DNA of 48,615 bases from an uncultured delta proteobacterium (GCA_963728565.1 CAVSLC010000024.1:1-48615), one strand, 5' to 3'. Shown: positions 3,502 through 39,499, counted from the stretch's first letter. Translations and numbers: made by a program. The notes: generated from the letters alone by a model not told the origin.

Positions 3502-3529
3502 GAAAATACCTCGAGTTGTTGGTCGAGTC

Positions 3530-3558
3530 AGAATATGGGGTCCATGAGAAAGCGTCAA
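3530..3558 (-). promoter_or_regulatory. Sigma70-type promoter for the Lon-like gene
   Basis: TTGACG-17 nt-TATTCT on the minus strand. Confidence 0.6.
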
Positions 3559-3587
3559 CCTGCTCAGCGCTTGCTGGAGCAACGCGG

Positions 3588-5669: not shown

Positions 5670-6380
5670 TTAGATCCCTTTCATCAAACCGGCGAGTTCT
5701 GTCTTAGCAGCATTGTGATCCCAGATCTTCTGAACCACCGAGTCTTTGCGGCGCTGTTTCATGACCCTTTGCGTCTCGTCCTCGTTGTAAATCATGACAG
5801 GTCCCAACAATGAAGCTTTATAGAACCGGGACGCGGCTTCTTCCAAGTCCACACATCCGGCGAATACCCATTCGATCGAGTGAGCGACGACCATCGACCC
5901 ATGACCGCGCAGCATCACCGCATCCGCGGCGCCAAGCGCTTTTGCCACTGCGTCGCCCTGCTCTATCGTATGGATCAGTGCTGGGTCCATGTAAACAGGT
6001 AATGGTCCCGCGCCAAAAAAAGCGCCAGGATTGGAAGAAGCTGGATAGAACGGCTTGTCAACCATGCTCAGGGTGGCAACCATGTGATTGTGCAGATGAG
6101 CGACGCTTTGGATATCGCTGCGGGCTCTATAGGCCCGCGCGTGCATATTAACCTCTGACGGCGCTTTGTATTTGCCTTCGATCAATTTCCCATCGAAGTC
6201 GGTGATCACCATATCGTCCGGTTTTACCGTAGCGCGACTTACCGGGTGTGGCAGGATAACAAGGTGATCAGACCCGGGAATACGCGCGCTAATATGACCG
6301 CTGTAATCGACTAATCCGGCGTTGAACAACATGCGGGACGACATAGCCAGCTTTTTTTTGATCTCTGATAATTCCGACAC
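5670..6380 (-). CDS. Class II aldolase/adducin family protein (decarboxylase-like)
   Basis: SGHISARIPG, PSEVNMH, HLH and LRGHG motifs. Confidence 0.88.
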   Translation of the reverse strand: MSELSEIKKKLAMSSRMLFNAGLVDYSGHISARIPGSDHLVILPHPVSRATVKPDDMVITDFDGKLIEGKYKAPSEVNMHARAYRARSDIQSVAHLHNHMVATLSMVDKPFYPASSNPGAFFGAGPLPVYMDPALIHTIEQGDAVAKALGAADAVMLRGHGSMVVAHSIEWVFAGCVDLEEAASRFYKASLLGPVMIYNEDETQRVMKQRRKDSVVQKIWDHNAAKTELAGLMKGI

Positions 6381-6540
6381 GATTTACTCCTCTCAGTTGA
6401 ACTGGTTGTCTGTGCTATATCTTTCCTCGAATGAGAGTTCAAACGAAATGGGCATAACGTTTGAAGCCCGCAAGACTCCTGTCAAGTGCCGAACCGCAAC
6501 TTTGATGACGTGAAACCGCGAGCATGCATCGACTTACCAC

Positions 6541-6641
6541 GACCCTGATTCCGGCGGTCCGGATGGGAGATTGCGGGTCGGTCGCTAACCGCGGCACGTA
6601 AATGTCCGCCGGAGTGGTCTACCTTAGGCAACCAGCTTTTT
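6541..6641 (+). ncRNA. Candidate structured RNA element of unknown family
   Basis: GACC..TTCCGGCGG (6541-6557) pairs with CCGCCGGAG.GGTC (6606-6619). Inner TTGCGG/CCGCGG stem, possible loop-to-3'-tail pseudoknot, T-run at the end. Intergenic. Confidence 0.35.
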
Positions 6642-6694
6642 GCCGCATGGACGAGAGAACAAGTTTGTCTACATCTTCTAACCAGCCAGTAAGA

Positions 6695-8137
6695 TTATTT
6701 CATTTTAAAGCTTGGCGGCACCACTTCATCGATGCTCTTTCCGGTCCAATGCCATTTGGGAACACTGTCCCAGACTTGTTCCCCTTTTTTCTGAACTTTG
6801 TCGAGCAGCTCTTGCTCATCCAGGCGAAGGTATTTGTAATCGTCCACCAGTGTTTCGCCGTCGACGATGACGGTTCGCACGTCGCGGCTGACGGCGTTTT
6901 CCATCAGCGAGCGGATCGGATCCCGCACGGCGCCGAACGCGATGTCGCGCAGGTTAATGATAGCGATATCGGCTTTGGCGCCCTTTTGCAGCCGGCCGAG
7001 ATCGTCGCGTCCAAGCATTTTGGCGCCGCCGAGCGTGATCGCGTTGAAAACGTCGCGCGGGTGGCCGGCAAGAAAGCTCTTGTCGGCGACGCGAGACGCG
7101 ATCGCCGCGTAGCGCATGTCGGAGAGAATGTCCTTGGGAAACGTGTCGGTGCCAATGCCCATGTTGATGCCGGCCTGGCGATATCTATCGAAGGACTCCA
7201 TAACAATGCCGAGCTTTAGGTATTTTAACGGGCTATAGGCCACCGAGGCGCCGGAATCTGAGATGATCTTCAAATCATCGCCGTACGGATAAGCGAGCCA
7301 GCTGTGGCCGCTGACAAAGATACAGTGCGACAGCGAAACTTCCGGGTCGAGAAAGCCCACCTTGTGAAGCAATTCGATAGGCGTGCAGCGCTCGCGCTGC
7401 ATCACGGTGTGAAACTCGAATAGATTGATTGTAGCGTGTATCTGCACGCGCACGCCGATTTCTCTGGCGGCTTTCCGTGTGTCTTTCAACAATGCGGGGG
7501 TACAAGAGTCGACGTGGCCGGGAAAGAGCATCGCGGTCATGCGGCCGCTGCACGCACCGTTGGATTTCTTGGCGAAGTCGACGGCGGTTTTTAATCCCTT
7601 GCTGCCGCGCTCGTCGTCCCAGTCATATTCCAACCGGCCCTTGCGGTCGTGAAAGAAGCTGACGTTCTTGTAGCTCGGGCCGGCTACACAGCGGATACCG
7701 ACCTGATCTATCATGTCGACGTAGCGCTCGGCTTCGCCGCCGGCGCCGCCGATGTCGAAAGTCGTAGTTACCCCGCTTTTGAGCACGTGGATTACGGAAT
7801 AGCGCTGGCCGATATCAACGTCTTTCAAATGCGCCGAGTGCACGCCTTCGCGTGTCGGCCCACCGTGCGCCAGATAGTTGGAAGCGAAAAAATCAGTCTT
7901 GGTCGAGTCGGCGAGAATGTAATCGCTGGCATTGATCCCCGAATGGAAATGAGTGTCGATGAAGCCGGGCGAAACCAAGCAGCCCTTGGCATCGATCTTT
8001 CTGTCTACAGCTTGAGAGTAGTCTTTGCCGACGAATTCGATTCGATTGCCATCGTAGACGACCACGCCGTCCTTGATGATCTCATGTTGTGTCCCATCAA
8101 ATCCGACCACGAATCCGCCTTGAATTAAAGTCTTCAT
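6695..8137 (-). CDS. Amidohydrolase superfamily protein (chlorohydrolase/deaminase-like)
   Basis: PGFIDTHFH metal motif, IHA, SHC, GIGTD, GAKAD. Confidence 0.88.
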   Translation of the reverse strand: MKTLIQGGFVVGFDGTQHEIIKDGVVVYDGNRIEFVGKDYSQAVDRKIDAKGCLVSPGFIDTHFHSGINASDYILADSTKTDFFASNYLAHGGPTREGVHSAHLKDVDIGQRYSVIHVLKSGVTTTFDIGGAGGEAERYVDMIDQVGIRCVAGPSYKNVSFFHDRKGRLEYDWDDERGSKGLKTAVDFAKKSNGACSGRMTAMLFPGHVDSCTPALLKDTRKAAREIGVRVQIHATINLFEFHTVMQRERCTPIELLHKVGFLDPEVSLSHCIFVSGHSWLAYPYGDDLKIISDSGASVAYSPLKYLKLGIVMESFDRYRQAGINMGIGTDTFPKDILSDMRYAAIASRVADKSFLAGHPRDVFNAITLGGAKMLGRDDLGRLQKGAKADIAIINLRDIAFGAVRDPIRSLMENAVSRDVRTVIVDGETLVDDYKYLRLDEQELLDKVQKKGEQVWDSVPKWHWTGKSIDEVVPPSFKMK

Positions 8138-20033: not shown

Positions 20034-20255
20034 TCTAAGCATTGATGATACCAAACTTACCCAAGCTTGAAAAGAATATCCCAGCGGCCATGGGCCGGCT
20101 TTCACCTACGGCGACACGCCTAACTAACCGATACCGGATACATTGAGCCCGCTTCGGCGGATGGGCAGAAATTGACGAATGGTAAAATTTGCGGTTTGTG
20201 TTTAACTAGATGCCCAGAGTCGCGCATTATGCCATTTTCGAAGGAGGAATTAGCG

Positions 20256-20774
20256 ATGGCGCGGGATTTAAAAGAGGCCTTTTTTCGTCTTGACGGCGCT
20301 TGGGCGTCATTCGAGCTCGGATCGATTCGGCGCCGTGACGATTACCTCAAACCTTTTCGAGTGCTCCGCTGTAAAATCGACGATCAGGTCGACTTCCAAA
20401 GCCCAGGAGCGCCCCAGAGTGCAACCGAGGCTTCCGTTTTGATCGAAGTTTTCGGCGAACAGGAGCTGGTGGCCGCGAGCGGGCGCGGCCCTGTTCATGC
20501 AGTCGACAATGCCATGCGCAAAATCCTTGAAAAACATTTCCCGCAACTCGCCGAAGTCAAGCTCGAGGAGTTCGATGTGCGGCTGCTACCATACGAGCCG
20601 CCGCGCGACGACGATGATAATGGCGCCGGCGCGCTGGTTCGTGTGCTGGGCATCTTTTCCGATGGAGAGGATCGTTGGGGAACCGTCGGTGTCGCAGTCG
20701 ATATCCTCCAGGCAAGCCTTGAGTGCATCATCGACGGTCTGGAATGGAAGCTCAGAGGCGAGCAGAAGCATTGA
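20256..20774 (+). CDS. Standalone LeuA/CimA-type allosteric (dimerisation) domain protein
   Basis: AAGGAGG Shine-Dalgarno then ATG 20256. ASGRGPVHAVDNAMRK, FPQLAEVKL, VRVL...DGEDRWGTVGVAVDILQAS match the citramalate synthase C-terminus. No TIM barrel. Confidence 0.8.
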   Translation: MARDLKEAFFRLDGAWASFELGSIRRRDDYLKPFRVLRCKIDDQVDFQSPGAPQSATEASVLIEVFGEQELVAASGRGPVHAVDNAMRKILEKHFPQLAEVKLEEFDVRLLPYEPPRDDDDNGAGALVRVLGIFSDGEDRWGTVGVAVDILQASLECIIDGLEWKLRGEQKH

Positions 20775-25257: not shown

Positions 25258-27939
25258 TTAAGCGTGAGCTTCCGCCCAATTCGGGCCCACATGGATATCG
25301 ACGTCAAGGCCGCAGCGAAGATCCGCAGCTTGAGTCATCGCTTCCTCGATCAGAGCCCGAGCCTGCTCAAGGTGCTCGATAGGAACCTCGAAGACGAGTT
25401 CGTCGTGCACAGTCAACAGCATCTTTGCAAGCGGTTCTTTGCGCAACGCTTCATCCACATTGATCATAGCCTTCTTTATGATATCCGCGGCGCTCCCCTG
25501 TATGGGGGTATTGAGCGCCATACGCTCGCCGAGCGCTCTTAGCCGGAAATTCGACGAGCCCAATTCCGGCAAATAGCGACGGCGGCCAAACATGGTTGTC
25601 GTAAACCCGTCGATCTTGGCTTGGTTCACCTGCGCGGCTAAAAATTCTTTTACTTTCGGAAATTGCGCGTAATAGGCTTCTACAAAACTCGCTGCCACGT
25701 CCATTTCTACGCCAAGTCGTTGCGATACTCCGAAAGTGGACATCCCATAGGCTATGCCATAAGAAAACTGCTTTACCTGGTTGCGCATCTGCGAGGTCAC
25801 TTCGGCTAAAGCGACACCGTAGACTTTCGCCGCGATGGTGGCGTGAAAATCATGCCCCTGCGCAAAAGCTTGCAGAAAAGTCTCGTCTTGCGACAGATGC
25901 GCGAGAACACGCAGTTCAATCTGAGAGTAATCCGCCGATAACAGCACATGGCCCGGCGGCGCGATAAAGGCGCGGCGAATCCGACGTCCCAACTCGCCAC
26001 GTATCGGTATGTTTTGCAGGTTGGGCGCGGTTGACGACAAGCGTCCAGTGGCAGCTGTCGTCTGCTCGTAAGTGGTATGGATTCGATTGCTCTTGCTATC
26101 AATCAGCTCCAGCAGCATCTCTGTAAAGCCGTTCTTTAGTTTCGATACCTCTCGATATTCGAGCAGGACTGGAATGATCCGATGCGCCTCGGCCAGCTTC
26201 TCCAATTCGGCAGCGTCGGTGGAAAAACCCGTCTTGATTCTTCTGGTCTTGGGTAGACCGAGCTTTTCGAAGAGAATCCGCTGGAGCTGTGGCTGCGAGT
26301 TCACCTTGAAGTCTTCGCCGGCGAGATCTTTGATTGCCCGTTCAAGCGCGGTTACTTTGTTTCCTAAATCGGCATCGAACTTTTCAAGATAATCTCGGTC
26401 GATGAGGATGCCATTATGCTCCATTCTGGCTAGTACGCCAATTAGTGGGAATTCCAGGGTGGTGGCAAGTTCCCAGATGCCTTGATCGCTGAGCTGCTCC
26501 TGCAGTATGGGAACCATGCCGCGGATGGCCATAGCTTCGCGAGCAATGCGCTTTTTTTCTGGGGCGCCGAAGGCAAGAGTGCTTTGTTCGCCGATCGCCA
26601 GTTCGGCCGCGTTGCCGTTGAGCGAAACCCCCAGATAACGTTTGGCCGCGTCAGCCAGCGTGTATCCAGAGGCTGATCCCGGCTCCAGTAAATAGGCGGC
26701 AATCTTGGTGTCGCAGTAGAATGATAGAAATTCGATACCGGCCGCCAAAGCTAAACGATAGATGGATTTGCCGTCATGAGCCACTATCAACCGTACAGGA
26801 TCTTGAAAAAATTCCCGGAGCCGGTCCATTGCTGCGTCCATGCCCAGCGTGTGCACCTCGCCGGGCCCATCACAAACAGCCAGCCAATTCTCGCTCCAAG
26901 CCAATGCGACGGCGCCGTCTTGTTTAATTTCGTCAGCCGATCTCAATTCCGAGATTGATTTCGGTTCGAGAGCCGCGCCGAGAGGCACCGAAACGTGCAT
27001 ATTCAGCGCTCTTAAACGTTCGTGCAAACTGCGGAACTCAAGTGAGGTAAAGAGCTTTAGAACTTCTTCGTCATTCCAGCGCTCGAGGCACAGTTTGGTT
27101 GGATCCAGTTCGAGTCCAACATCACTGAGTAACCGTCCCAGCTCTTTATTGATCCGTACTTGGTCGGCGTGCGCTTTGATGGAATCACGAAGTTTGGGTG
27201 TGAGCTCATCCGCATGCGCGATGATGCCTTCAATATCGCCATACTTCTTGACCAGCTGAGCCGCGGTTTTGTCGCCAACCCCGGGAATACCAGGAAGATT
27301 ATCGGAGGGCTCGCCCTTGAGCGCCACGAAATCGAGCCACTGATCCGGGGAAACGCCGTAGCGCTCTATAACCGTAGGTACGTCATATCGGATGACATCG
27401 GAAATTCCGCGGCGAGTCATGATCACCGATACGCCCTCGCCTACTAGCTGGAGAATGTCTCGGTCACCGGTGACGACGATTACTTCGCAGCCTTCACCAC
27501 GGCAATTCTTGGTCAGCGTCGCTAACAGGTCATCGGCTTCATAGCCGTCGAGCTCGACAATCGGAATTCGCAAAGCTCGAAGCACCTCTCGAATCAACGG
27601 CAGCTGCTGCCTGAAAAGATCCGGAGTCTCCGCGCGACCCGCTTTATAGGCGGCATAACGATCGAGGCGAAACTGCGGCGCGCCTTTATCGAAGCAAACG
27701 ATGACAGCTTGCGGCCGCTCGTCGGCCAGAAGCTTTATGAGCATGGAGGTGAAGCCGTAAACGGCATTGGTCACCTGTCCGGAAGATGTGATCAGCGTGT
27801 CGGGCAATGCAAAAAAAGCGCGGAACGCGAGAGAATGACCATCGATCAAGATGATCTTGCGCAGGTTGTTTCTAGACCGGGCACTATCGGTTGGTCCAGC
27901 CGATTTTCTGCTTGATTGATTCTTGATTTTAGCGTGCAC
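25258..27939 (-). CDS. polA: DNA polymerase I
   Basis: 5'-3' exonuclease (IDGHSLAFRAFFALP, YEADD, SDNLPG), motif A ADYSQIELR, motif B KQFSYGIAYG, motif C VHDEL. Confidence 0.97.
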   Translation of the reverse strand: MHAKIKNQSSRKSAGPTDSARSRNNLRKIILIDGHSLAFRAFFALPDTLITSSGQVTNAVYGFTSMLIKLLADERPQAVIVCFDKGAPQFRLDRYAAYKAGRAETPDLFRQQLPLIREVLRALRIPIVELDGYEADDLLATLTKNCRGEGCEVIVVTGDRDILQLVGEGVSVIMTRRGISDVIRYDVPTVIERYGVSPDQWLDFVALKGEPSDNLPGIPGVGDKTAAQLVKKYGDIEGIIAHADELTPKLRDSIKAHADQVRINKELGRLLSDVGLELDPTKLCLERWNDEEVLKLFTSLEFRSLHERLRALNMHVSVPLGAALEPKSISELRSADEIKQDGAVALAWSENWLAVCDGPGEVHTLGMDAAMDRLREFFQDPVRLIVAHDGKSIYRLALAAGIEFLSFYCDTKIAAYLLEPGSASGYTLADAAKRYLGVSLNGNAAELAIGEQSTLAFGAPEKKRIAREAMAIRGMVPILQEQLSDQGIWELATTLEFPLIGVLARMEHNGILIDRDYLEKFDADLGNKVTALERAIKDLAGEDFKVNSQPQLQRILFEKLGLPKTRRIKTGFSTDAAELEKLAEAHRIIPVLLEYREVSKLKNGFTEMLLELIDSKSNRIHTTYEQTTAATGRLSSTAPNLQNIPIRGELGRRIRRAFIAPPGHVLLSADYSQIELRVLAHLSQDETFLQAFAQGHDFHATIAAKVYGVALAEVTSQMRNQVKQFSYGIAYGMSTFGVSQRLGVEMDVAASFVEAYYAQFPKVKEFLAAQVNQAKIDGFTTTMFGRRRYLPELGSSNFRLRALGERMALNTPIQGSAADIIKKAMINVDEALRKEPLAKMLLTVHDELVFEVPIEHLEQARALIEEAMTQAADLRCGLDVDIHVGPNWAEAHA

Positions 27940-28066
27940 CTTCGTAGTCTACCCGTTGGAATTAACCGGAGCAAACAAGCCGAATTCGCGCTGCAGCCCA
28001 TCGGGTACTAGTTCAAGGTGCAACCGTGCTCAGTAAAATCGGCCCCCTGCATGCAAGATGGTTGGC

Positions 28067-29632
28067 TTATTTGCGCCAAACTGAAACGTTCGGACTCGTT
28101 CCTCCGTCCGACAGCAATGTCTCGCTGTCGCGAATGACTTTTCCTGAAGAGGTGCGCGGTAGCGACTCACGGATGACAATCTTTTGCGGCACTTTGAAAT
28201 TTGCCAGATTAGCGCGCAGAAAACTTATCAACTCCTTTGGGGCAATCGCATGGCCTGGCCGCGGCACTACCGCAGCACCGATCACCTCACCCCGCTTCGG
28301 ATCAGGGATGGCAAAGACGATGGTCTCTTGCACGTTCGGAAAGCTGTAGATCAGGTTTTCCACCTCGGCGGGGTACACGTTAAGACCGCTGGTGATGATC
28401 ATATCGTCAAGTCGACCGAGATGGATGAAGTAACCGTCCGAGTCCCGTTTGCCGACGTCGCCGGTGTAAAGCCAGCCGTTACGAATGCGCGCTGACGTGG
28501 CCTCTGCTTTGCGAAAATACCCTTTCATCACATGGGGACCACTCGTAATGATTTCTCCCGGTTCATCGACGGGCAGTTCTCTGCCGGACTCATCGACGAT
28601 TCTTACCTCGACTCCCGGTACTGGACGGCCAATACTTCCCAACTTGGCTTCGGCTCGCTCCGGTTCAACCAGGGTGATCATCGGTGAAGTCTCGGTCAAG
28701 CCATAACCCTGGAGAAGTGCGATGTGCGGCTGAGCTGAATGAAATGCACGCAGGAGCGACAACGGAACCGTAGTCCCCATCATGGCGGCGATCTTCACGC
28801 TGCTCGTGTCATATTTTGAAAGATCGCGCACCCCTAGGAGAAGTTGAAAAACGATCGGCACGCTTTCAAAGACACTAATGCGATATTTCTGAATGCCGTC
28901 CAACAAGGTGACCGGGTTAATTTGGTCGAAAATGACCAGAGTGAATCCCTTATCCGCCACTTCATTGCAGACCAACGGGCCAACGATGTGCGACATCGGC
29001 AGGATGCAGCCTCGGATCGTGCTCGAATCGGTGATGCCCATAGCGGTCATGACACGAGGATACTGCGCCAGATTGCGATAACTGAGGACCACGCCTTTGG
29101 GTTCGCCGGTGGTCCCCGAAGTATAAAGAATCAGTGCCTCGTCGTCAGCCTGCAGTTGCGGCGCGAGCGCTGATCGAGGCGGTGCCGCGTAGCGATCTTC
29201 AAAGGACTGTTCGCCCTCGCCTCGGACGATCCATACTGATACTGGGGTGAGCTCTTCGACGACATTGGCCACTTCGGAGATCAGCTGCTTATGGATAACC
29301 AGGAGCTTGAGATCCGCATCGCACAAGACGTCGTGTAACTCCTTGCCCTTTAATCGGGCATCAAGGAGCACGCTCACCGCGCCGATTTTTTGACTAGCAA
29401 AATAGATCAGCGGAATTGCCGCGCAATTGGGTAACAGCACTCCCACCCGATCGCCTTGTTTGATGCCTTCGCTATGCAAGTGACCGGCTAGAGCATGCAC
29501 CCGCGCGTTAAGAACCGAAAAGCTCAGCTCTTCTTCCTTGTCAATGATCGCGATTTTGTTTGGATGCTTTCGTGCTGCTTGGTCGAGCAGCTCCGCGGCG
29601 AAAAATCCTACTGAATCAAGATGGTTTGCCAC
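28067..29632 (-). CDS. Long-chain acyl-CoA ligase / AMP-binding enzyme
   Basis: YTSGTTGEPKG, GYGLTE, TGD, GRLDDMII, PRTSSGK. Confidence 0.9.
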   Translation of the reverse strand: MANHLDSVGFFAAELLDQAARKHPNKIAIIDKEEELSFSVLNARVHALAGHLHSEGIKQGDRVGVLLPNCAAIPLIYFASQKIGAVSVLLDARLKGKELHDVLCDADLKLLVIHKQLISEVANVVEELTPVSVWIVRGEGEQSFEDRYAAPPRSALAPQLQADDEALILYTSGTTGEPKGVVLSYRNLAQYPRVMTAMGITDSSTIRGCILPMSHIVGPLVCNEVADKGFTLVIFDQINPVTLLDGIQKYRISVFESVPIVFQLLLGVRDLSKYDTSSVKIAAMMGTTVPLSLLRAFHSAQPHIALLQGYGLTETSPMITLVEPERAEAKLGSIGRPVPGVEVRIVDESGRELPVDEPGEIITSGPHVMKGYFRKAEATSARIRNGWLYTGDVGKRDSDGYFIHLGRLDDMIITSGLNVYPAEVENLIYSFPNVQETIVFAIPDPKRGEVIGAAVVPRPGHAIAPKELISFLRANLANFKVPQKIVIRESLPRTSSGKVIRDSETLLSDGGTSPNVSVWRK

Positions 29633-29979
29633 AGCGAAAAAGCCCTCTCGAACGGTTTGTACCAGCCCGCGAGCTGCGACAGCTCGCCGCGCTTAAGTTT
29701 TAATTTGCCCTGCTGAGTTGCAAGAAAAGGATCGATGCGGGCTCGAAACACTGCGCTCCACCACTCTTCTGAGCCGCTGATCATAAACTCACCGCTATCA
29801 CCCCGTTCAAGCTGCGTGATCTGGCCAGAGTCAAAACGCACGGTCCAGGCTACGTCCTTTTCTTCGAGAAAAAGCGTCAGGGATGTAGAGAGGCTGGTTT
29901 CTTCCCCGTGAGAACGAAATTGAGAATCATGGTTCGCGCGCTCCACCAAAGCGGACATGTGCTCTTTCGAGAACAACAC
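29608..29979 (-). CDS. SCP2 sterol/lipid-binding domain protein
   Basis: C-terminal part of ORF 29608..30156, likely GTG start at 29979. ISGSEEWW...IDPFLATQQGKLKLKRG is an SCP2-like signature. Confidence 0.72.
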   Translation of the reverse strand: MLFSKEHMSALVERANHDSQFRSHGEETSLSTSLTLFLEEKDVAWTVRFDSGQITQLERGDSGEFMISGSEEWWSAVFRARIDPFLATQQGKLKLKRGELSQLAGWYKPFERAFSLWQTILIQ

Positions 29980-29986
29980 ATAAGAT

Positions 29987-30613
29987 TCACGCGTTTGTGG
30001 ATCGGCGAGGCCCTTTTGTTGTGTTATCCGATCCGCAATCGAAAGCGTTCGATTCACTTCGAAGCTCCATGAAGAACCGGCAACGCACAGCTTCTTCCAG
30101 TAAATCGGTAAGCAAAAAGGTCTCTTGAAGATTCCTGCCGATAGCCACCGTGCCATGACCCTTGATGATGGCGACCGGACGGTACTTTAATTCTTCTGCT
30201 AACCTCTCGGGCTTTGTTACCGTCGGCGTATCCTGGGCGACTATTGGAACTTCGCCAATTGTATACTTCTCCTCAAAACTCACCGGAACGAAATGATCAT
30301 GAGTCAATGAAAATGCCAGAGTCATGGGTGGATGAACATGAACAATAGCTTGTGTCCCGCTGGCTGCATACAGAGCCAAATGCAGAGGCGTCTCGCTCGA
30401 TGCAAGCTGGTCTCGGTTAAGCGGCCTGCCAGCGCCATCAATCCGCACCAAATCTGCCGCTGTTAAAAAACCAAGCGGTGCATGCCGCCCCGTGATCAAA
30501 AACTCGTTCTCTCCAACCCGACAACTGAGATTTCCGCCCCAGCCGCTGATTAGATGCCGGTCAAACAGCAGCTTGCCCCATTTGATCATCTCTCCTTGGA
30601 GCTTCTTCATCAT
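29987..30613 (-). CDS. Class II aldolase (FucA/Ald2-like; methylthio- or deoxy-ribulose-1-phosphate aldolase-like)
   Basis: GGNLSCR, ASSETPLH, HVH, KGHG. ATG at 30613. Confidence 0.85.
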   Translation of the reverse strand: MMKKLQGEMIKWGKLLFDRHLISGWGGNLSCRVGENEFLITGRHAPLGFLTAADLVRIDGAGRPLNRDQLASSETPLHLALYAASGTQAIVHVHPPMTLAFSLTHDHFVPVSFEEKYTIGEVPIVAQDTPTVTKPERLAEELKYRPVAIIKGHGTVAIGRNLQETFLLTDLLEEAVRCRFFMELRSESNAFDCGSDNTTKGPRRSTNA

Positions 30614-30630
30614 TCTAGTCTCAAAATTTG

Positions 30631-32136
30631 TTAAACAACTCCCAGGGGTATGACTTCGCTTTCGAGGGGAAAGATTGAGGCTCCGCTGGGACAAATATTT
30701 CTCCCCATGAACGTCGAGACATCGCTATCAATACTCGATCGCTTAACTGAATCAGACGCCAGCAGTTCAACGGGTACGCCATGGGCGCGCGCCAATTCAA
30801 GTGCCAACAATGAGCCACAGATACCACTGGCTCCCTGCGAGCCGAGCCGGCTATAGTAGAGATAGAGCTTACTGATTTCGTCCCGGGCGAAAAAAAATCC
30901 TATCATGTTGTCAGAGATCAGAGTCGTTGGCAGATTGTGCTCAAGCAGCGCGGGCGCCACGGCATGAACACCCCACATATGCGGCCGCATTTCCGGAATT
31001 AAGAAACGGCTGGCTCGCTCAGCTTTCAGCGCACTGATTAAGTGATCGCGCTGATCTAAAGGCGGGATACCATAAACGAGCAGGTACTTGCTTCCATCCT
31101 TTATCGGGCTAGGTGCTGGGGATCTCTGCTGCTGGTACTTTCGGCGGAAACTTTCAGGTGTGTAGACACCGTCAAACCCAATAAAATACGTAATTAACGG
31201 CGCCGGCGTAACATCAAAAGCAGGATAGCGGACCGCAACGCTAGCGTCGGCTATTAGCTGCCGTCCTTGGAAGCTTAGCAGCTCTGCGCCCGGCCTTTCT
31301 TCGATCGGCACATCGCTCCCTTGCACCAACGAACGCGGGTCTTGAACCAGCACGTGAAATGGAACTCCGTATCGCTTTGCCATTACCGCCAGCGGATAGG
31401 TGCCGACTTTGTTGATGATATCGCCATTCTGTGCCGCACGATCCGAACCGACGACGACTGCATTGGCTTCGCCTCTAGCCATCACCTGGGCGATGGCGCA
31501 ATCGGGAATCAGTGATACGCGAACGCCTCCTCGTGCGAGCTCCCAAGCGGTCAGTCTCGCGCCTTGCAGGTACGGTCGGGTTTCCGTGGCGATGGCGGCG
31601 AAGTCTTTGCTCATCGTCGCGCAATGCTGCGCTATCGCCAACAGTTCTCCACTCATGTTGCAGTGGGTTAAAACCCGCACCGGGTCGGGCAAAAGCTCGG
31701 CAGCGCGCTTTGCTCTTGCACGCCGGGCACGGACGATCTGCGCGGCGAAATCACAAGCTCGCTCGCTAATCCACTCACCGGCACTCACGTTTCCCGGCAG
31801 CTTTTCAAACCACTCTTCGAAATATTGACCCAGTCCGCGGAAATCGAATGTCGGTCGCGCTCGGCAGAACTCGTGGGTCAGTTGATCGATCGATTCTCGC
31901 AGCGGGGGGATTTCCTTCGCGTGATAGTTTTGCGCCAGGAGCGCACCGCTATAGAGGAACGTAAGGACTTGACCAAAGGCACGCGTTTTCATCTCCCGCA
32001 CAGCATCGATGGCCTGCGAAGCATCTTTGACGCTGATATATTGGATCTGCTCGGGAAGCGAAATCTCATCGAGAATTCGAAAACCGCCACCTTCCCATAG
32101 AACCGGCTCAAAAAGCGGGCTTTGTACCGAATTCAT
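30631..32136 (-). CDS. mtnA: MtnA-like ribose-1-phosphate isomerase (eIF-2B family) with an extra degenerate C-terminal copy of the IF-2B domain
   Basis: ARPT, LTHCN, ETRPYLQGARLTAWEL, VGSDR..NGDIINKVGTY, PAFDVTP. The last ~150 aa repeat the domain (EMRPHMWG...LISDNMIG). Confidence 0.8.
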   Translation of the reverse strand: MNSVQSPLFEPVLWEGGGFRILDEISLPEQIQYISVKDASQAIDAVREMKTRAFGQVLTFLYSGALLAQNYHAKEIPPLRESIDQLTHEFCRARPTFDFRGLGQYFEEWFEKLPGNVSAGEWISERACDFAAQIVRARRARAKRAAELLPDPVRVLTHCNMSGELLAIAQHCATMSKDFAAIATETRPYLQGARLTAWELARGGVRVSLIPDCAIAQVMARGEANAVVVGSDRAAQNGDIINKVGTYPLAVMAKRYGVPFHVLVQDPRSLVQGSDVPIEERPGAELLSFQGRQLIADASVAVRYPAFDVTPAPLITYFIGFDGVYTPESFRRKYQQQRSPAPSPIKDGSKYLLVYGIPPLDQRDHLISALKAERASRFLIPEMRPHMWGVHAVAPALLEHNLPTTLISDNMIGFFFARDEISKLYLYYSRLGSQGASGICGSLLALELARAHGVPVELLASDSVKRSSIDSDVSTFMGRNICPSGASIFPLESEVIPLGVV

Positions 32137-32159
32137 AAACGATCTGCAGTTGCACCAGG

Positions 32160-32894
32160 CTAAAAGTACTTGAGAGCTTCGCGGGCAACCGCAATGATTT
32201 TCTCTTCGGCTGCGAAAAACAAAGGGTTACGAAACCCGAATTTGCCGTGCAAACACTCATCCGACACGGCAAGAATGGCACCGGCCTTTTTCTTTCGAAC
32301 TTGAGCGATCGTCAAAAAAGCCGAGGTCACCATGTCGATGCTCGAAACATTTTGTTCTGTGAGTTGCGCGATCAATTCCGGCGTTTCCTGGAATAGCGCG
32401 TCAGTGGTAAAGATCCAGCCTAGATGGAAGCGCACGTGCAGGCTTTCCGCGGCTCGCTTCAATGCATCGACTATCTCGGGGTGAGCCCGGGTGGAAAAAT
32501 TATTCGCCACGTAATAGGGCGATGTGCCTTCACCGCGCAGGGCTCCGGTCACGATGATCAGATCGCCAATCTTCACATGCTCCTGCAACGAGCCGCAACT
32601 TCCGACGCGGATCAGCGCTTGGGCACCGGCACCGCAAAGAATTTCGGTGGTAATCGCCGCGTCCGGAGCGTAGCGCCCGCCATTTCCGACGGTTACTCTC
32701 TTTCCGTCCAGAGTTCCGGTGTGCATCTCGTAATCCAGGAACGTGAAGTTTTTTTGCGGTTGATCCAACATACTCAAAAGCAATTGGCTCCGATCCTTCG
32801 GGCCGGGAATCAAGGCATAAGGACCGAGAGAGTCGGCCTTCAGCCCGAGCATCGAGAGCATTCTTTGCGGTGTAAAGTGAGCTTCTTTGAGCAT
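32160..32894 (-). CDS. Nucleoside phosphorylase (PNP_UDP_1, hexameric Udp/DeoD/MTAP type), divergent
   Basis: IPGPKDR, IRVGSCGSL, GDLII..GALRGEGTS..Y, TTDALF, SIDMV, AVSD. Confidence 0.85.
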   Translation of the reverse strand: MLKEAHFTPQRMLSMLGLKADSLGPYALIPGPKDRSQLLLSMLDQPQKNFTFLDYEMHTGTLDGKRVTVGNGGRYAPDAAITTEILCGAGAQALIRVGSCGSLQEHVKIGDLIIVTGALRGEGTSPYYVANNFSTRAHPEIVDALKRAAESLHVRFHLGWIFTTDALFQETPELIAQLTEQNVSSIDMVTSAFLTIAQVRKKKAGAILAVSDECLHGKFGFRNPLFFAAEEKIIAVAREALKYF

Positions 32895-32897
32895 CGA

Positions 32898-34121
32898 TCA
32901 AACAGCTTGGCCGACAAACTCAATCAGATCTTGGGTCGGCAGAGCAGGCTGTTCAAGCGCATTGAATGAGCGCTGGCATAACGCGCTTGAAGTCAAAACC
33001 AGTTCGGCGCCGGTCTCCTTCGCCTCACGCATACGATCGGTTGCGCTCCATTGAGCGAGGTTGGGATCCGCTTCAGGAACACCGCCACCGCCGCCGCAGC
33101 ACCATGCCCAACGTTGGTTCCGTGTCATTTCCACGACCTCGACTCCAGGAATGGCGCGCAAAACGGTGCGCGGCGCTTCGTATATGCCGCAACCTCGCCC
33201 CAAATGGCAGGAATCGTGGTAAGTAACTTTTTGTCGAATCGGTTTGGTGATTTTCAACTGACCCGCCCGTAAAGCGGCGTCGAGATATTCCACGCCATGC
33301 AAGACTTCCAAATCGGCGGCACCAACTTTGGCATTCTCGCGCCAAATGCGCCGGCAACTGCCGCAAGCAACCACCAGCCTTCGCACTCCACCTTGCGTAA
33401 TTACGGCCAGGTTTTCCTGTTGCAGACGCTCGTACTCGCGCCGAAATCCGAGATCGTAAGCATGCAACCCGCAGCATTTTTCCTGATCACCGAGGATAAC
33501 AAAGTCCTCGCCTGCCTTTTGCATCAGCTTGGCTAAGGCCACGACACCGGCGCGGCCGCTTGGCTGATCGGCGGAGCAACCGGCGAACAACAGCGTCGGG
33601 GCATGTCGCTCAGCAATTTTAGCCAGCCCCAATCCGTCTGCCCAAAAGCCGCGTTCTGCCCTCGTTTGTGACCAGGGGTTATCGTGTTGCTGCAAGCCCT
33701 GGTATAGGTGGCGATGAGCGGCAATCGGACCCTCTTCCTCAGTGATCTGCTCGCGCATGGCAACCGTAATATCCCATGGGCCGTAACCGTCAGCCCGGAC
33801 GCCGCAAAGCTCCTGGCACATCAGGCAGGTTGTACAACTATAGACGATTTCCTTGAGTTCGGGCGTGATCGGGTCAAGCCCGTGAAAGACCCGCTGCGCC
33901 ATCAGCCAACGCGACTTTGGCGTGTGGCGTTGGAACCGATAAAATTCATAAGGCGGGCATTTTTCTTTAGGCCCGGGAACGTCTTCCATCGGATTGGCCG
34001 GGCCGTGCCCATAACAGGAGCCGCATAAAACACAGCCACTGCTGCGCGCATTTAGATCTTTGGCATAAAGCCATTTTTTGACCCGCTCTAGGCCGAAGTT
34101 TTTTTTGGATTCGTCTTGCAC
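32898..34121 (-). CDS. Fe-S oxidoreductase with 2x[4Fe-4S] and CCG domains (GlpC/HdrD/FadF-like)
   Basis: CVLCGSC, CTTCLMCQELC, KCCG, YHDSCHLGR, CCGGGGG. Confidence 0.88.
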   Translation of the reverse strand: MQDESKKNFGLERVKKWLYAKDLNARSSGCVLCGSCYGHGPANPMEDVPGPKEKCPPYEFYRFQRHTPKSRWLMAQRVFHGLDPITPELKEIVYSCTTCLMCQELCGVRADGYGPWDITVAMREQITEEEGPIAAHRHLYQGLQQHDNPWSQTRAERGFWADGLGLAKIAERHAPTLLFAGCSADQPSGRAGVVALAKLMQKAGEDFVILGDQEKCCGLHAYDLGFRREYERLQQENLAVITQGGVRRLVVACGSCRRIWRENAKVGAADLEVLHGVEYLDAALRAGQLKITKPIRQKVTYHDSCHLGRGCGIYEAPRTVLRAIPGVEVVEMTRNQRWAWCCGGGGGVPEADPNLAQWSATDRMREAKETGAELVLTSSALCQRSFNALEQPALPTQDLIEFVGQAV

Positions 34122-34160
34122 AGTATGAAGCGTGTAAGATCCGCAGCTGTTTTGAAGAAA

Positions 34161-34210
34161 TGAAATCTTAAGACATCAATTGTATAGCCCCAGACAAACT
34201 GGCGTGTCAA
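34161..34210 (-). promoter_or_regulatory. Operon promoter with a putative MarR operator
   Basis: Minus-strand TTGACA...TATACAAT, followed directly by the imperfect palindrome TGAaaTCTTAAGAcaTCA (34161-34178). Confidence 0.55.
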
Positions 34211-34214
34211 CAAA

Positions 34215-34673
34215 CTAGCTTAGAATGGCGAACTCGGCGTGATTCAGCTTTCGTAGCAAGGCGGAGAGTTCTTTCTGATGCGGAAGATCGAGCGAAGAAA
34301 AGATTGCAGACACACTTCTCTCAAAGAGAGGAATCGTGGTCTTGTATAAGTTGGCTCCTTTATCTGTCAATGTTACGTGAACAACACGGCGGTCGGTTGA
34401 GTCGCGCTTTCTTACGACCAGTTTTTTTTGCTCAAGCCGGTCAACGATACCGGTAAGATTGCTGACCGTCACCATCATCTTAGCGCCGATCTCGCCAAAT
34501 GGGAGGCTGCCGGCGTAACCGATGGTTGCGAGTACGTAGAACTGTGGCGGTGTTAAACCGACTTTGCCAAGATCAGATTCCAACTTTTTATGCGACGAGA
34601 GATTAAACCTTAAAAACCGCACCCAGAGACTCGTGCTGTAGGAAGCAAAAAAGGGACGTTTTTCGACTCGCAC
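34215..34673 (-). CDS. MarR family transcriptional regulator
   Basis: GLTPPQFYVL, NLTGIVDRLE, RDSTDRR..HVTLTDKG. Confidence 0.92.
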   Translation of the reverse strand: MRVEKRPFFASYSTSLWVRFLRFNLSSHKKLESDLGKVGLTPPQFYVLATIGYAGSLPFGEIGAKMMVTVSNLTGIVDRLEQKKLVVRKRDSTDRRVVHVTLTDKGANLYKTTIPLFERSVSAIFSSLDLPHQKELSALLRKLNHAEFAILS

Positions 34674-34812
34674 GTGGCCAATTTAGTCGGCGTCAAATGA
34701 AAAAGCAATAAATAGCTCGTCGTTTGCGAATTGAGAGTTGATTCGTGGAAGCGGTTCCGCGGCTTGACTCCTAAAGCCCGGCGGCTTAACTGGAATTACA
34801 ATCGAAGTAAAA

Positions 34813-35547
34813 ATGAGACTCCATATACTGGGCTGCGGTGATGCATTCGGCAGTGGTGGGCGTAATCAAAGTGCATACTTAATCGAGGCCCCGGACCGCC
34901 TGTTCTTGCTGGACTGCGGCGCAACTTCTTTGCTCGCGCTCAAGAAGCTCGGATTTAATTCGGGCCAACTCGATGCCATCTTCTTGAGCCACCTGCATGG
35001 CGATCACTTTGGCGGCTTGCCTTTTTTCTTCATCGAATTTCTGTATGAGAAGAGCCGCGAAAAGCCGCTGCATGTGGCCGGGCCCGTGGGAACAGAAGAA
35101 AAAGCTCGTGCCGTCTTCGACCTGATGTACGGAAAGGGCACCAAGGCCGGAGATCTTGCAAGTATCTGCTTCCATGTTTTAGAGCCTGAGAAAACTTCAA
35201 CGATTCAGGGAATTGAGGTATTTCCATTCCGCGTGCCGCATCAGGTGAACGAAATATCGCTCGCGTTGAAGGTTAGTTATAACGGCAAGCACGTTTTGTT
35301 TTCGGGAGATTCGGCCTGGACAGATGCGTTTCTAGAGCACGCCCGGGAGGTCGACCTTTTCGTCTGCGAGTGTACCTTCTACGACCGGGAGACCTCGAAC
35401 CACATGAGCTACCTACAGTTGAGAGAACAATTGCCACGTTTGAGCTGCTCTCGAATCATACTGACTCACATGGGCTACGACATGCTCGCTCGTAGCGCCG
35501 AAATTTCCTGCGCGATGGCAGAAGATGGAATGGTCGTGGAGATTTGA
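34813..35547 (+). CDS. MBL-fold metallohydrolase (RNase Z/BN-like)
   Basis: LGCGDAFGSGGR, SHLHGDH, SGD, LTH. Confidence 0.88.
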   Translation: MRLHILGCGDAFGSGGRNQSAYLIEAPDRLFLLDCGATSLLALKKLGFNSGQLDAIFLSHLHGDHFGGLPFFFIEFLYEKSREKPLHVAGPVGTEEKARAVFDLMYGKGTKAGDLASICFHVLEPEKTSTIQGIEVFPFRVPHQVNEISLALKVSYNGKHVLFSGDSAWTDAFLEHAREVDLFVCECTFYDRETSNHMSYLQLREQLPRLSCSRIILTHMGYDMLARSAEISCAMAEDGMVVEI

Positions 35548-37615: not shown

Positions 37616-38133
37616 AAACGCTCAAAAATCCGTCGGTATTCCTCTGCTAACGGCCCGGCATCACGAAAAAGTAAAAGATTTTCATCATTGGAGCTGTCGG
37701 CGGCTTGGGTCCAATTATAGGAGCCGGTAAACACGACGCGGCGGTCGATGATGGCGAATTTCTGGTGCATGAGCCCAGCCTCTCGTGCCGCATTGGGTGG
37801 CTTGCTGCCTGACAGACGCCGTACCGGAATTCTTTGAACCTCTAAAAATTTACCTTTAGACTTGTCATTGCGCGAGTCAAACTCCCGATCAATGATGACC
37901 TGAACCATGAGACCCCGCTTCTTGGCTTGTACCAAAGCGCCGGCTAGTTCGTCGCTTGTGAACGCGTAGACGGCAACCAGAAGTTCTCTTCTAGCATTCT
38001 CGATTTCTCGTACAATATGGGTAGAGCACTTACCTTGGGGACTAAAACAAGCTTCCACAGCCATATCGGCGCTGGCGGAGGCAATGAGCGTAAAGAAAAT
38101 TGCGCCTGCAATCAGGAATGGAAATGGCTTCAT
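37597..38133 (-). CDS. Phospholipase D family protein (Nuc-like endonuclease), secreted
   Basis: Signal peptide, FSPQG, VYAFT, single HKD motif HQKFAIID, TGSYNW, NDEN. Confidence 0.88.
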   Translation of the reverse strand: MKPFPFLIAGAIFFTLIASASADMAVEACFSPQGKCSTHIVREIENARRELLVAVYAFTSDELAGALVQAKKRGLMVQVIIDREFDSRNDKSKGKFLEVQRIPVRRLSGSKPPNAAREAGLMHQKFAIIDRRVVFTGSYNWTQAADSSNDENLLLFRDAGPLAEEYRRIFERLWERKS

Positions 38134-39499
38134 ATTGCCGCGATCCGGTCGCCGTAGCTTGGGACCGTCCGACCTCCCAAGCACATCTGCAAAATCAGCC
38201 GTTCCATGACTAATTCCGGGTTTGCTCCGCTCGACTTCAAGAGCAGATCCGCATCGTGAATACCGCGCATGTGTGAAAGCAACTCGGGCAACGAAAATGT
38301 TTCAGCTCGCTGAAAACAGAGATAATCCGCGTACGGGTTACGCGTCAGTAATGTCGTCCTCTGGTCGATGATCGCTTGCTCAAATTGCTTGTAGGTCATA
38401 CCGCGCTTCCACCGGCCGCGCAAATCACTTTCGAGTATTTGCCGCGCAGATATAAGCTTCCGCAGTTCAGCCGCAATGACGCTCAGTAATCTCAGTGGGT
38501 GATCACCTCCCGCCAGCAGCCGAACTAGCTGGCAGAGAGCCGCTGTAGCGTCGCGCGCGGCAATAAACCGGGTAAGATCGAAAATCCAACCTTCGATTTG
38601 GTCCGCGAAAATCGTCTCAACATCATCAGCGCGGATCACCGCGTGTTCACCGACGTAGAGCACCAACTTATTCAGCTCTTGTTGAAGAGTGCGTAGATCA
38701 TCCCCGGCGCGGAGCAAAATCAATTCGCGGGCTTTCGGATCAACCCGCTTATTGGAAGAGACTCAACTGTCGGTCAATAAATTCCCGCAGCTTGTCTCGG
38801 CTGATCTTGCCAAACCGATCACGCTCGAGACCAAGAAAAAATATCGCGCCGTTTTCTTCGAATTGCTTGTAGAGTCGAGTTCGCCGATCCACTTGCGCTG
38901 CACTGAGGAGCAGAAAATCCCAGGACGGCAAACCTCCGTTCAATAGTTTCCGAATTGCGTTTTCTTCGGAGTCACGGCCTTCTTTAAGCTCAAATCCTCT
39001 GATCTTACAGTATGCGACCAGCGCGTCGGCTGCTTCCCTGCCGTCATGATCTTGTGCCTGTAACAGCTCAAATACGGCTGCGGTCCCTGGACGGTTCGAG
39101 CTGTTCCCATTGTTTTTGGCTCCAACCCTCGATGGCCAGTAAATTGAATAAAAGCTTACCTGCATCATCTTTCTTGTCCTCACTCCATAGCTGCATTATT
39201 TTCTGCCCGAGTTCGCTTTTATTCTCACGCGAAAGAAAGTAGGGCGCGCTTTCGACCCATACAAGCTTTTTTCCGGGCAAGAACGGGGGAGTCAAAAGCG
39301 ACAATTCAATCTGATCCCATGCCGCTGAGCGGCCGTCGAACCGCTCAAGATTAAATTCTCTCTGGTCGGGGGGAACGACAACATCGATCAGCGCCTTGCA
39401 GGCCGATTGTACCTGCAGATCATCGCCGAATAGAAGCACCAAGGCCGGTCCACTACCATTCCCAACGTCAGTTAGAAAATTTTCAAAATTTCGTTTCAT
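38130..39499 (-). CDS. holA: DNA polymerase III delta subunit, split by two frameshifts
   Basis: Fragments 39068..39499 (LLFGDD, FNLERFDG, TPPFL..KKLVWV), 38749..39183 and 38130..38723 (LQQELNKLVLY, IFDL, DLLLKSSG). Confidence 0.82.

Follow-up and report, generated by a model that had tools for sequence, protein, structure and literature searches.

Two papers on the dihydroxyacetone phosphate (DHAP) shunt of Rhodospirillum rubrum and extraintestinal Escherichia coli describe a phosphorylase, isomerase and aldolase logic, carried out by MtnP (or MtnN together with MtnK), MtnA and Ald2 (PMC10986504, PMC12632272). We analysed a window of 48,615 nt from an uncultured delta proteobacterium (CAVSLC010000024.1), the whole stretch of DNA to which the window coordinates below refer, and focused on an operon on its minus strand that encodes a nucleoside phosphorylase, an MtnA-like isomerase, a class II aldolase fused to an SCP2 domain and an acyl-coenzyme A (CoA) ligase, with genes for a CCG-domain Fe-S protein and a MarR-family regulator ahead of them. 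To our knowledge, the DHAP shunt is known only for disposing of small by-products of S-adenosylmethionine (SAM). An MtnA-type isomerase and a class II aldolase likewise occur in the DrdK-DrdI-DrdA system for 5-deoxyribose disposal in Bacillus thuringiensis, and the fluorometabolite pathway of Streptomyces cattleya runs through a 5'-fluoro-5'-deoxyadenosine phosphorylase, an MtnA-like isomerase, a class II aldolase and an aldehyde dehydrogenase. For a lipid-nucleoside substrate, the HpnH-HpnG pair that acts on the hopanoid side chain is the only established precedent we know of, and we know of no isomerase or aldolase step in hopanoid synthesis. HpnH, HpnG and HpnJ are covered by a review from 2026 on radical SAM enzymes that modify lipids; in the passages of it that were found, HpnG, an enzyme of the purine nucleoside phosphorylase (PNP) superfamily, removes adenine from a C5'-lipid-linked adenosine, and the word 'aldolase' does not occur (PMC13459092).

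Our reading, held with moderate confidence, is that the operon encodes a DHAP-shunt variant whose substrate would be a hydrophobic nucleoside modified at the 5' position (5'-deoxy); the base removed from it would probably be a purine. Our observations cover the protein families with their catalytic residues, the fusion, gene order and paralogy, as well as what surrounds the module in other lineages; a hydrophobic substrate, the order of steps and a role for the CCG protein in oxidation are what the families, the fusion and the neighbours suggest. A hydrophobic substrate is favoured because the aldolase-SCP2 fusion is conserved, the SCP2 fold is confidently predicted, the ligase is of fatty-acyl/aryl type, and distant relatives of the operon carry aldehyde dehydrogenase and export genes. 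In the proposed pathway, the phosphorylase would take off the base to leave a sugar 1-phosphate, which the remodelled MtnA-like isomerase, with an additional half-domain, would convert to the ketose 1-phosphate. The aldolase would then release DHAP and an aldehyde keeping C4', C5' and the 5' substituent, whose hydrophobic tail would be held by the fused SCP2 domain. Oxidation of the aldehyde to an acid would follow, a slot that an aldehyde dehydrogenase fills in other phyla and for which the CCG protein is the candidate here, and the ligase would finally form the acyl-CoA. The original prediction for this locus had set out the same logic of phosphorolysis, isomerisation, aldol cleavage, acid and CoA ester, which is sound, and the catalytic residues are in place; the same prediction had named adenosylhopane as the substrate, a claim that the co-occurrence of genes does not bear out.

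A conserved, lineage-restricted operon

A scan for related loci with the long isomerase, keeping one genome per species, gave 22 loci, with record titles of Candidatus Binatia (6), Deltaproteobacteria or delta proteobacterium (12) and other labels (4). The order CCG protein, phosphorylase, isomerase, aldolase, SCP2 and ligase is kept in all 22, down to 54% isomerase identity, and the cluster is therefore not a chance grouping. In 19 of the 22 loci the CCG gene is preceded by a MarR gene, the exceptions being L018 (where the contig ends), L022 and L004-type cuts, and the flanking MarR, metallo-beta-lactamase-fold, carboxypeptidase, polA and Nudix genes are also kept in most of the loci. The contigs that hold the operon originate from soil, sediment and terrestrial metagenomes.

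For an even sample we used 151 genomes of the class, including the unpublished genome G087 (one of the 141 without the operon), and counted as an orthologue any isomerase with at least 54% identity over approximately residues 1-498. Full-length orthologues were present in 10 of the 151 genomes, namely the window's genome, all eight others of its family (one of them cut by a contig end) and a single genome, G047, of a neighbouring family; the other 141 hold canonical MtnA only, at ~35% identity. An operon distributed over one family plus G047 yields at most two independent contrasts for co-occurrence. The module may well be a lineage-restricted, MarR-controlled form of the DHAP shunt.

An SCP2 domain fused to the aldolase

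In the aldolase, E74, H92, H94 and H153 are unchanged in all 25 fused homologues compared (22-61% identity), and so are G27, N28 and S30. From E. coli FucA, we take E74 to be the acid-base Glu, the three His residues to bind the metal, and G27, N28 and S30 to form the phosphate site. With metal ligands and phosphate-site residues invariant and a PF00596 score of 126.5 bits, the protein bears the marks of a DHAP-forming aldolase, and its profile matches FucA and the PDB entries 6BTD and 6BTG (E 7e-29), which we take to be DrdA.

By Pfam alone the SCP2 call is marginal (21.6 vs 21.3 bits, the figure after 'vs' being the curated cut-off here and throughout). A profile of the 25 fused homologues, however, matches Thermus TT1886 (1WFR, E 1.4e-7) and the SCP2 structure 2CX7 (3e-7), and an AlphaFold model of the SCP2 part, built from 19 sequences, has a predicted local distance difference test (pLDDT) score of 91.4. 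The top Foldseek matches to this model are the same Thermus structures, 2CX7 and 1WFR, at TM scores of 0.81-0.88 (0.88 for 2CX7), followed by alkylsulfatase SCP2 domains, UbiJ and eukaryotic SCP2; ESM Atlas scores for this part, at 0.84-0.85, serve as leads only. On these models, the assignment of the C-terminal domain to the SCP2 fold is firm, and lipid binding is predicted. The SCP2 carrier of the original prediction stands as a family call; it is the C-terminal domain of the aldolase and not a separate gene.

The fusion is not peculiar to a few contigs. The intact protein of L005, one of the closest relatives (334 residues), finds a single in-frame match in 20 of the 22 loci, the two others, L024 and L025, having frameshifts in nearly every gene, and the best 120 database homologues listed are 319-346 residues long. 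When all 1.84 billion cluster representatives were scanned with the fusion, 39 proteins were returned at E <= 1e-30, of which 23 are full-length aldolase-SCP2 fusions of 318-342 residues at 22-46% identity. Literature searches turned up no described aldolase-SCP2 fusion.

In the window itself the gene is split by one extra letter, GCTTTCG standing against GC-TTCG in the three closest relatives (L004, L005 and L006) at ~30042-30044. The extra T is also missing from public contigs of runs X1, X4 and X15 (one letter left out at 30042), the three of four runs with cover there, and these three comprise two DNA runs and one RNA-library run. Further genes of the window are in pieces, namely a Lon-type protease (1204-3582, three frames) and a DNA polymerase III delta subunit (38130-39499, two frames), and lone fragments at 121-798 and 20172-20774 carry an acyl-CoA dehydrogenase N-terminal domain and a LeuA dimerisation domain; this fragmentation suggests an assembly prone to indels. 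Because the relatives and the public contigs lack the extra T, and the Lon and polymerase delta genes are also split, the break in the fusion is most simply an assembly error, and otherwise strain-private at most. Judging from where homology begins, the fusion would start at MMKKLQ (30613). At the isomerase stop codon (30633), contigs of runs X1 and X16 are without one base, and in genome G011 (C23:24259-25755) the isomerase frame stays open for 740 residues; some relatives may fuse the isomerase to the aldolase-SCP2 protein.

Divergent enzymes with retained catalytic residues

Genes of the window were called by Pfam and NCBIfam profile searches, which bear out the parts list originally proposed (phosphorylase, isomerase, aldolase, SCP2, ligase and CCG protein). 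They also agree with its caveat that the operon has no canonical aldehyde dehydrogenase, none being found in the cluster, which leaves the CCG protein as the sole redox candidate.

The isomerase matches MtnA of Thermotoga maritima (1T9K, E 3.7e-47), scores 219.3 vs 279 bits against the MtnA model TIGR00512, and retains the catalytic Cys (THCN) and Asp (GSDR). Right after this Cys, seven residues are deleted in every operon-type isomerase aligned, from the Binatia lineage and from distant metagenome loci alike, but not in the genome's own canonical MtnA, and on these alignments the loop deletion defines an isomerase subfamily. The MtnA-like body (residues ~1-330) is followed by a C-terminal extension of ~155 residues (residues ~345-501, bases 30634-31104), which weakly matches the second half of the IF-2B domain (profile positions 123-211, 24 bits).

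For the phosphorylase, the best family match is uridine phosphorylase (UP; TIGR01718, 128.1 vs 280.3 bits), DeoD is also among the best models, and the nearest solved structures are 4LNH, 3QPB, the MTAP of Sulfolobus solfataricus (1JDS) and the PNP of Thermus thermophilus (1ODI). The family signature consists of H6, RxGSCG, DMV(T/S)S and VSD, with the phosphate motifs and the SD Asp retained; the roles of these residues (R and GSCG in the phosphate motifs, Asp in SD) are assigned from E. coli PNP. The motif DMV(T/S)S occupies the place of E-M-E in PNP and UP, the Glu of which serves ribose binding.

The ligase has both ANL domains (AMP-binding and C-terminal) and is of the fatty-acyl/aryl type, not Acs-like. 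It scores 431.6 vs 476 bits against the long-chain ligase model PRK06187, too low to assign a chain-length preference, and its nearest solved structures are a feruloyl/fatty-acyl-CoA synthetase (8WEV/8WEU), FadD13 and oxalyl-CoA synthetase. The CCG protein falls below all equivalog cut-offs (TfrB, its best NCBIfam match, 137.4 vs 385; GlpC 52.3 vs 278; GlcF 31.7 vs 333), and the phosphorylase, isomerase and aldolase each fall short of the curated cut-off for the nearest named family. From their residues, the three enzymes look active yet specialised.

These family matches bear on a simpler proposal, that the operon serves ordinary nucleoside catabolism, in which ribose 1-phosphate would be converted to ribulose 1-phosphate and cleaved to DHAP and glycolaldehyde, with the GlcF-like CCG protein and the ligase acting on glycolate. 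The phosphorylase is indeed closest to uridine and DeoD types, and the aldolase bears a weak likeness to the haloarchaeal ribulose-1-phosphate aldolase (51.8 bits), as the CCG protein does to GlcF (31.7 bits). However, these family scores all lie far under their cut-offs, the cluster holds no GlcD/GlcE flavoprotein, an SCP2 fusion and a fatty-acyl-type ligase are unsuited to a hydrophilic two-carbon product, and in the distant loci the module is accompanied by genes for lipid export and for a radical SAM enzyme. We therefore consider it highly unlikely.

Distant relatives and the SAM by-product alternative

A metagenome scan with eight of the fusions yielded 41 distant loci; five long ones were annotated by Pfam, and all 41 were compared by tblastn. 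The distant block runs acyl-CoA ligase (often), B12-binding radical SAM enzyme, phosphorylase, a shorter isomerase, a small protein, aldolase-SCP2 and aldehyde dehydrogenase, and often ends with an HAE3-type RND transporter, a LolA-like/DUF1329 protein and DUF1302. The B12 radical SAM enzyme lies directly upstream of the module in 17 of the 41 loci, many others being cut there, and the aldehyde dehydrogenase lies directly behind the fusion in 25 and further downstream in 2 more. The small protein is a free-standing version of the isomerase C-terminal extension (30% identity, E 2.9e-10), which in L059 matches IF-2B positions 122-211. Within the window's genome, the distant ligase, phosphorylase, isomerase, half-domain and fusion each have their best match inside this operon (for the ligase, at 33% identity), and by this measure the module is one unit across phyla. 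A CCG homologue appears in just one of the 41 loci, at 28% identity and on the other strand, and for this reason the CCG protein and MarR are regarded as additions of the Binatia form, which for its part is without the radical SAM enzyme and aldehyde dehydrogenase of the distant blocks.

The distant radical SAM enzyme is nearest to BchE (207.5 vs 481.35 bits) and HpnJ (155.3 vs 577.6 bits) and is a member of neither family. The distant phosphorylase reaches 43.8 bits against HpnG (cut-off 187.1), and the RND/MMPL transporter was rejected as HpnN (68.7 vs 751.85 bits). In one distant subgroup, the L059 type, a 4'-phosphopantetheinyl transferase gene is inserted between phosphorylase and isomerase and there is no ligase; these loci add an Amidohydro_2 protein, an SDR, an MFS transporter and a 145-residue protein without a family (L059:8200-8538, 6528-7451, 3653-4621).

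The window's genome, which is 80.55% complete, also encodes a canonical MTAP (TIGR01694, 316.3 vs 274.85 bits) beside RlmN on contig C13, a canonical MtnA (435.9 vs 279 bits) and five further class II aldolase paralogues. The operon enzymes are therefore extra, divergent copies, and the operon phosphorylase is a divergent paralogue of this MTAP. In the window itself, at 5670-8137 on the minus strand, a second class II aldolase (best model an L-ribulose-5-phosphate 4-epimerase subfamily, 102.5 vs 251 bits) adjoins a chlorohydrolase-family amidohydrolase (PRK06151, 442.7 vs 416 bits, with a weaker likeness to 5'-deoxyadenosine deaminase at 184.8 bits); aldolase and amidohydrolase may be another nucleoside-related pair.

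These observations speak for and against the disposal of SAM by-products as the function of the operon. The enzymes would then convert 5'-deoxyadenosine or 5'-methylthioadenosine (MTA) to adenine, DHAP and acetaldehyde or (methylthio)acetaldehyde, and onwards to acetyl-CoA or (methylthio)acetyl-CoA, with the SCP2 domain serving a structural purpose. The three core enzymes belong to the known DHAP shunt families, and in the distant loci the module stands between a B12 radical SAM enzyme, whose reaction necessarily frees 5'-deoxyadenosine, and an aldehyde dehydrogenase, at the frequencies given above. No ARD was found in the genome at its 80.55% completeness, and it accordingly has no complete classical methionine salvage. 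However, the genome already possesses the canonical MTAP and MtnA and the five other aldolases, the Binatia operon is without a radical SAM partner, and 141 of the 151 class genomes do without the operon altogether. Moreover, this function accounts neither for the SCP2 fusion nor for the remodelled loop of the isomerase or the fatty-acyl type of the ligase, and we regard disposal of SAM by-products as possible, though unlikely.

A further possibility, which we put forward tentatively and think rather doubtful, is that the module forms the trimming half of an undescribed two-carbon lengthening of lipids, with the adenosyl group as the donor of the two carbons. As in the reactions of HpnH and MqnE, a radical SAM enzyme would transfer the 5'-deoxyadenosyl moiety from SAM, here to a lipid, and in other phyla the adenosylating enzyme would be the BchE/HpnJ-like B12 enzyme encoded beside the module. 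Phosphorylase, isomerase and aldolase-SCP2 would trim the adenosyl group to a -CH2-CHO stub, ready for oxidation and then CoA activation or export. The Binatia family would have retained the trimming half together with the CCG protein, its adenosyl-lipid coming from an unrecognised enzyme or from uptake out of the soil, adenosylhopane being an example.

Candidate substrates and their makers

Adenosylhopane was the substrate named in the original prediction; self-made or taken from soil, it would be converted to DHAP and bishomohopan-32-al and then to C32 hopanoyl-CoA. The carbon count is right by arithmetic, since cleavage of the ketose between C3 and C4 leaves hopane-C31H2-C32HO, and the chemistry is likewise consistent. 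A predicted lipid-binding domain is fused to the aldolase, and metagenomes of soil, sediment and terrestrial origin are the source of the contigs with the operon. Soils are rich in adenosylhopane. The operon phosphorylase has a superfamily homologue in HpnG, whose substrate is adenosylhopane (PMC13459092).

The genomic associations that the prediction proposed as checks point the other way. Counting matches to squalene-hopene cyclase (shc, TIGR01507) at E <= 1e-30, 100 of the 151 class genomes are positive, and these comprise 2 of the 10 operon genomes (G020 and G121) vs 98 of the 141 operon-free genomes, 93 of the 98 lying above the curated cut-off. The eight operon genomes without shc are 80.55, 100, 96, 97, 98, 98, 99 and 97% complete. 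Class genomes are related and so non-independent, and these tallies carry no statistical claim; there is no positive association between shc and the operon, and the trend is opposite. For the window's genome, the nearest thing to a squalene-hopene cyclase domain is a prenyl-cyclase repeat of 23.5 bits in a 299-residue frame, HpnH was not found (best 24.1 vs 225.05 bits), and the operon phosphorylase scores 29.5 vs 187.1 bits against the HpnG model TIGR03468. Among the 41 distant loci we saw no hopanoid gene, and their transporter is not HpnN. In the searched literature, the coverage of which leaves out most subscription journals, no paper deals with enzymatic adenosylhopane breakdown or with this module, and none links the module enzymes to hopanoids. 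The anatomy of the operon favours a hydrophobic substrate, but nothing points to hopanoids specifically, and adenosylhopane as the substrate appears extremely unlikely. For geochemistry, the negative shc co-occurrence means that the operon genes are not yet to be taken as a source of C32 hopanoic acids.

Aminofutalosine was also considered as a substrate and rejected. The match to the MqnE model (TIGR03700, 301.7 vs 434.55 bits) is CofH (467.9 vs 374.1 bits), and neither MqnA nor MqnD was found in the genome, the PF02621 match of 30.3 bits from this search adjoining ABC-transporter subunit genes. Of the genome's 15 radical SAM matches, two are RlmN and CofH; the other thirteen comprise housekeeping enzymes, three proteins resembling BchE/HpnJ and two that match no family. 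Elsewhere in the genome (G000:C5:234120-240030, L073), unlinked to the operon, lies a cluster of MMPL, BNR/Ycf48-like, DUF1329/LolA-like and DUF1302 genes, which is related to the export genes that trail the module in other lineages (MMPL 31% identity).

Returning to our preferred reading, a DHAP-shunt variant for a hydrophobic 5'-modified nucleoside, several points weigh against it. The first concerns supply, since no recognised maker of a 5'-lipid-linked nucleoside was found in the genome among the candidates sought (HpnH, MqnE and an orthologue of the distant B12 radical SAM enzyme); the best match to the last of these, at 24% identity, lies in a sugar-nucleotide cluster and was rejected. 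The second concerns oxidation, the aldehyde-to-acid step having no recognised enzyme in the operon, and we know of no CCG protein that oxidises aldehydes. As for the substrate, the best model for the phosphorylase is uridine phosphorylase, itself under the cut-off, which bears on base specificity, and the distant radical SAM neighbour fits the removal of plain 5'-deoxyadenosine equally well. Finally, GNAT/Eis-type entries appear low in the Foldseek list, and SCP2-like domains are not always lipid binders.

Layout of the operon and its flanks

The operon genes and the interruption in the aldolase-SCP2 frame are listed in Table 1. The original prediction had covered 28067..32894, and the MarR and CCG genes sit upstream of this, the CCG gene stopping 3 bases ahead of the phosphorylase gene. 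By Pfam, the operon is flanked by polA downstream and, upstream, by a divergent metallo-beta-lactamase-fold gene and a D-Ala-D-Ala carboxypeptidase gene. The metallo-beta-lactamase-fold gene (34813-35547, plus strand), which is divergent from MarR and keeps its position in 19 of the 22 related loci, has a weak likeness to RNase Z and to cyclic-nucleotide phosphodiesterase, all below cut-offs. A promoter and terminator scan of 27800-35000 gave counts at chance level (4 vs 3.5; 8 vs 9.0, observed against chance). Contigs from two soil metatranscriptome libraries, X15 and X16, match parts of every operon gene at 90-99% likeness, which is not proof of transcription.

Table 1. Features of the operon in the 48,615-nt window, from first to last in the direction of reading.
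Feature	Position	Strand	Evidence
MarR-family regulator, first gene of the block	34215-34673	-	PF01047, 59.9 bits
Soluble Fe-S protein with two 4Fe-4S motifs and two CCG domains (HdrD/GlcF/GlpC/TfrB type)	32898-34121	-	PF02754, 102.7 bits in 2 stretches; PF13183, 28.7 bits
Nucleoside phosphorylase, hexameric DeoD/uridine-phosphorylase type	32160-32894	-	PNP_UDP_1 (PF01048), 118.9 bits
MtnA-like sugar-1-phosphate isomerase, 501 residues	30631-32136	-	IF-2B (PF01008), 190.6 bits
Class II aldolase-SCP2 fusion	29608-30613	-	Two overlapping frames here: 29987-30694 (PF00596, 126.5 bits) and 29608-30156 (PF02036, 21.6 bits)
Extra T breaking the aldolase-SCP2 frame	30042-30044	-	Alignment to relatives and public contigs
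AMP-forming acyl-CoA ligase, fatty-acyl/aryl type, last gene of the operon	28067-29632	-	PF00501, 288.4 bits; PF13193, 66.6 bits

Comparison with known systems

The operon shares with the DHAP shunt its three enzyme families and their logical order, but differs from it in each of them. Its phosphorylase is of the hexameric DeoD/UP type and not an MTAP, its isomerase lies below the MtnA cut-off and has the seven-residue deletion and an extra half-domain, and its aldolase carries SCP2. To these the operon adds the CoA ligase, the CCG Fe-S protein and MarR, while the canonical MTAP and MtnA are encoded elsewhere. Compared with DrdK-DrdI-DrdA, it enters the pathway by a phosphorylase rather than a kinase and adds the SCP2 fusion, the ligase and the Fe-S protein. 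The fluorometabolite pathway of S. cattleya applies a like mechanism to a 5'-substituted 5'-deoxyadenosine and is comparable by analogy only, the operon being without a fluorinase and the pathway without SCP2 or CoA ligase.

HpnH and HpnG offer the parallel of a PNP-superfamily enzyme that removes adenine from a lipid-linked adenosine, but the operon phosphorylase misses the HpnG model, HpnH was not found in the window's genome, and there is no co-occurrence with shc among the class genomes. In SCP2-fused or SCP2-assisted enzymes (the alkylsulfatases SdsA1 and Pisa1, UbiJ and MFE-2), an SCP2 domain is joined to, or assists, an enzyme for hydrophobic substrates, and such domains are among the fold matches to our model. 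The predicted lipid-binding domain on the aldolase, the remodelling of the isomerase, the CoA ligase and, in distant relatives, a radical SAM enzyme and lipid export genes suggest that DHAP-shunt chemistry is also applied to large hydrophobic nucleoside conjugates. If true, this would add to adenosylhopane and aminofutalosine a new class of lipid-nucleoside intermediates, together with an enzymatic route from them to acyl-CoAs.

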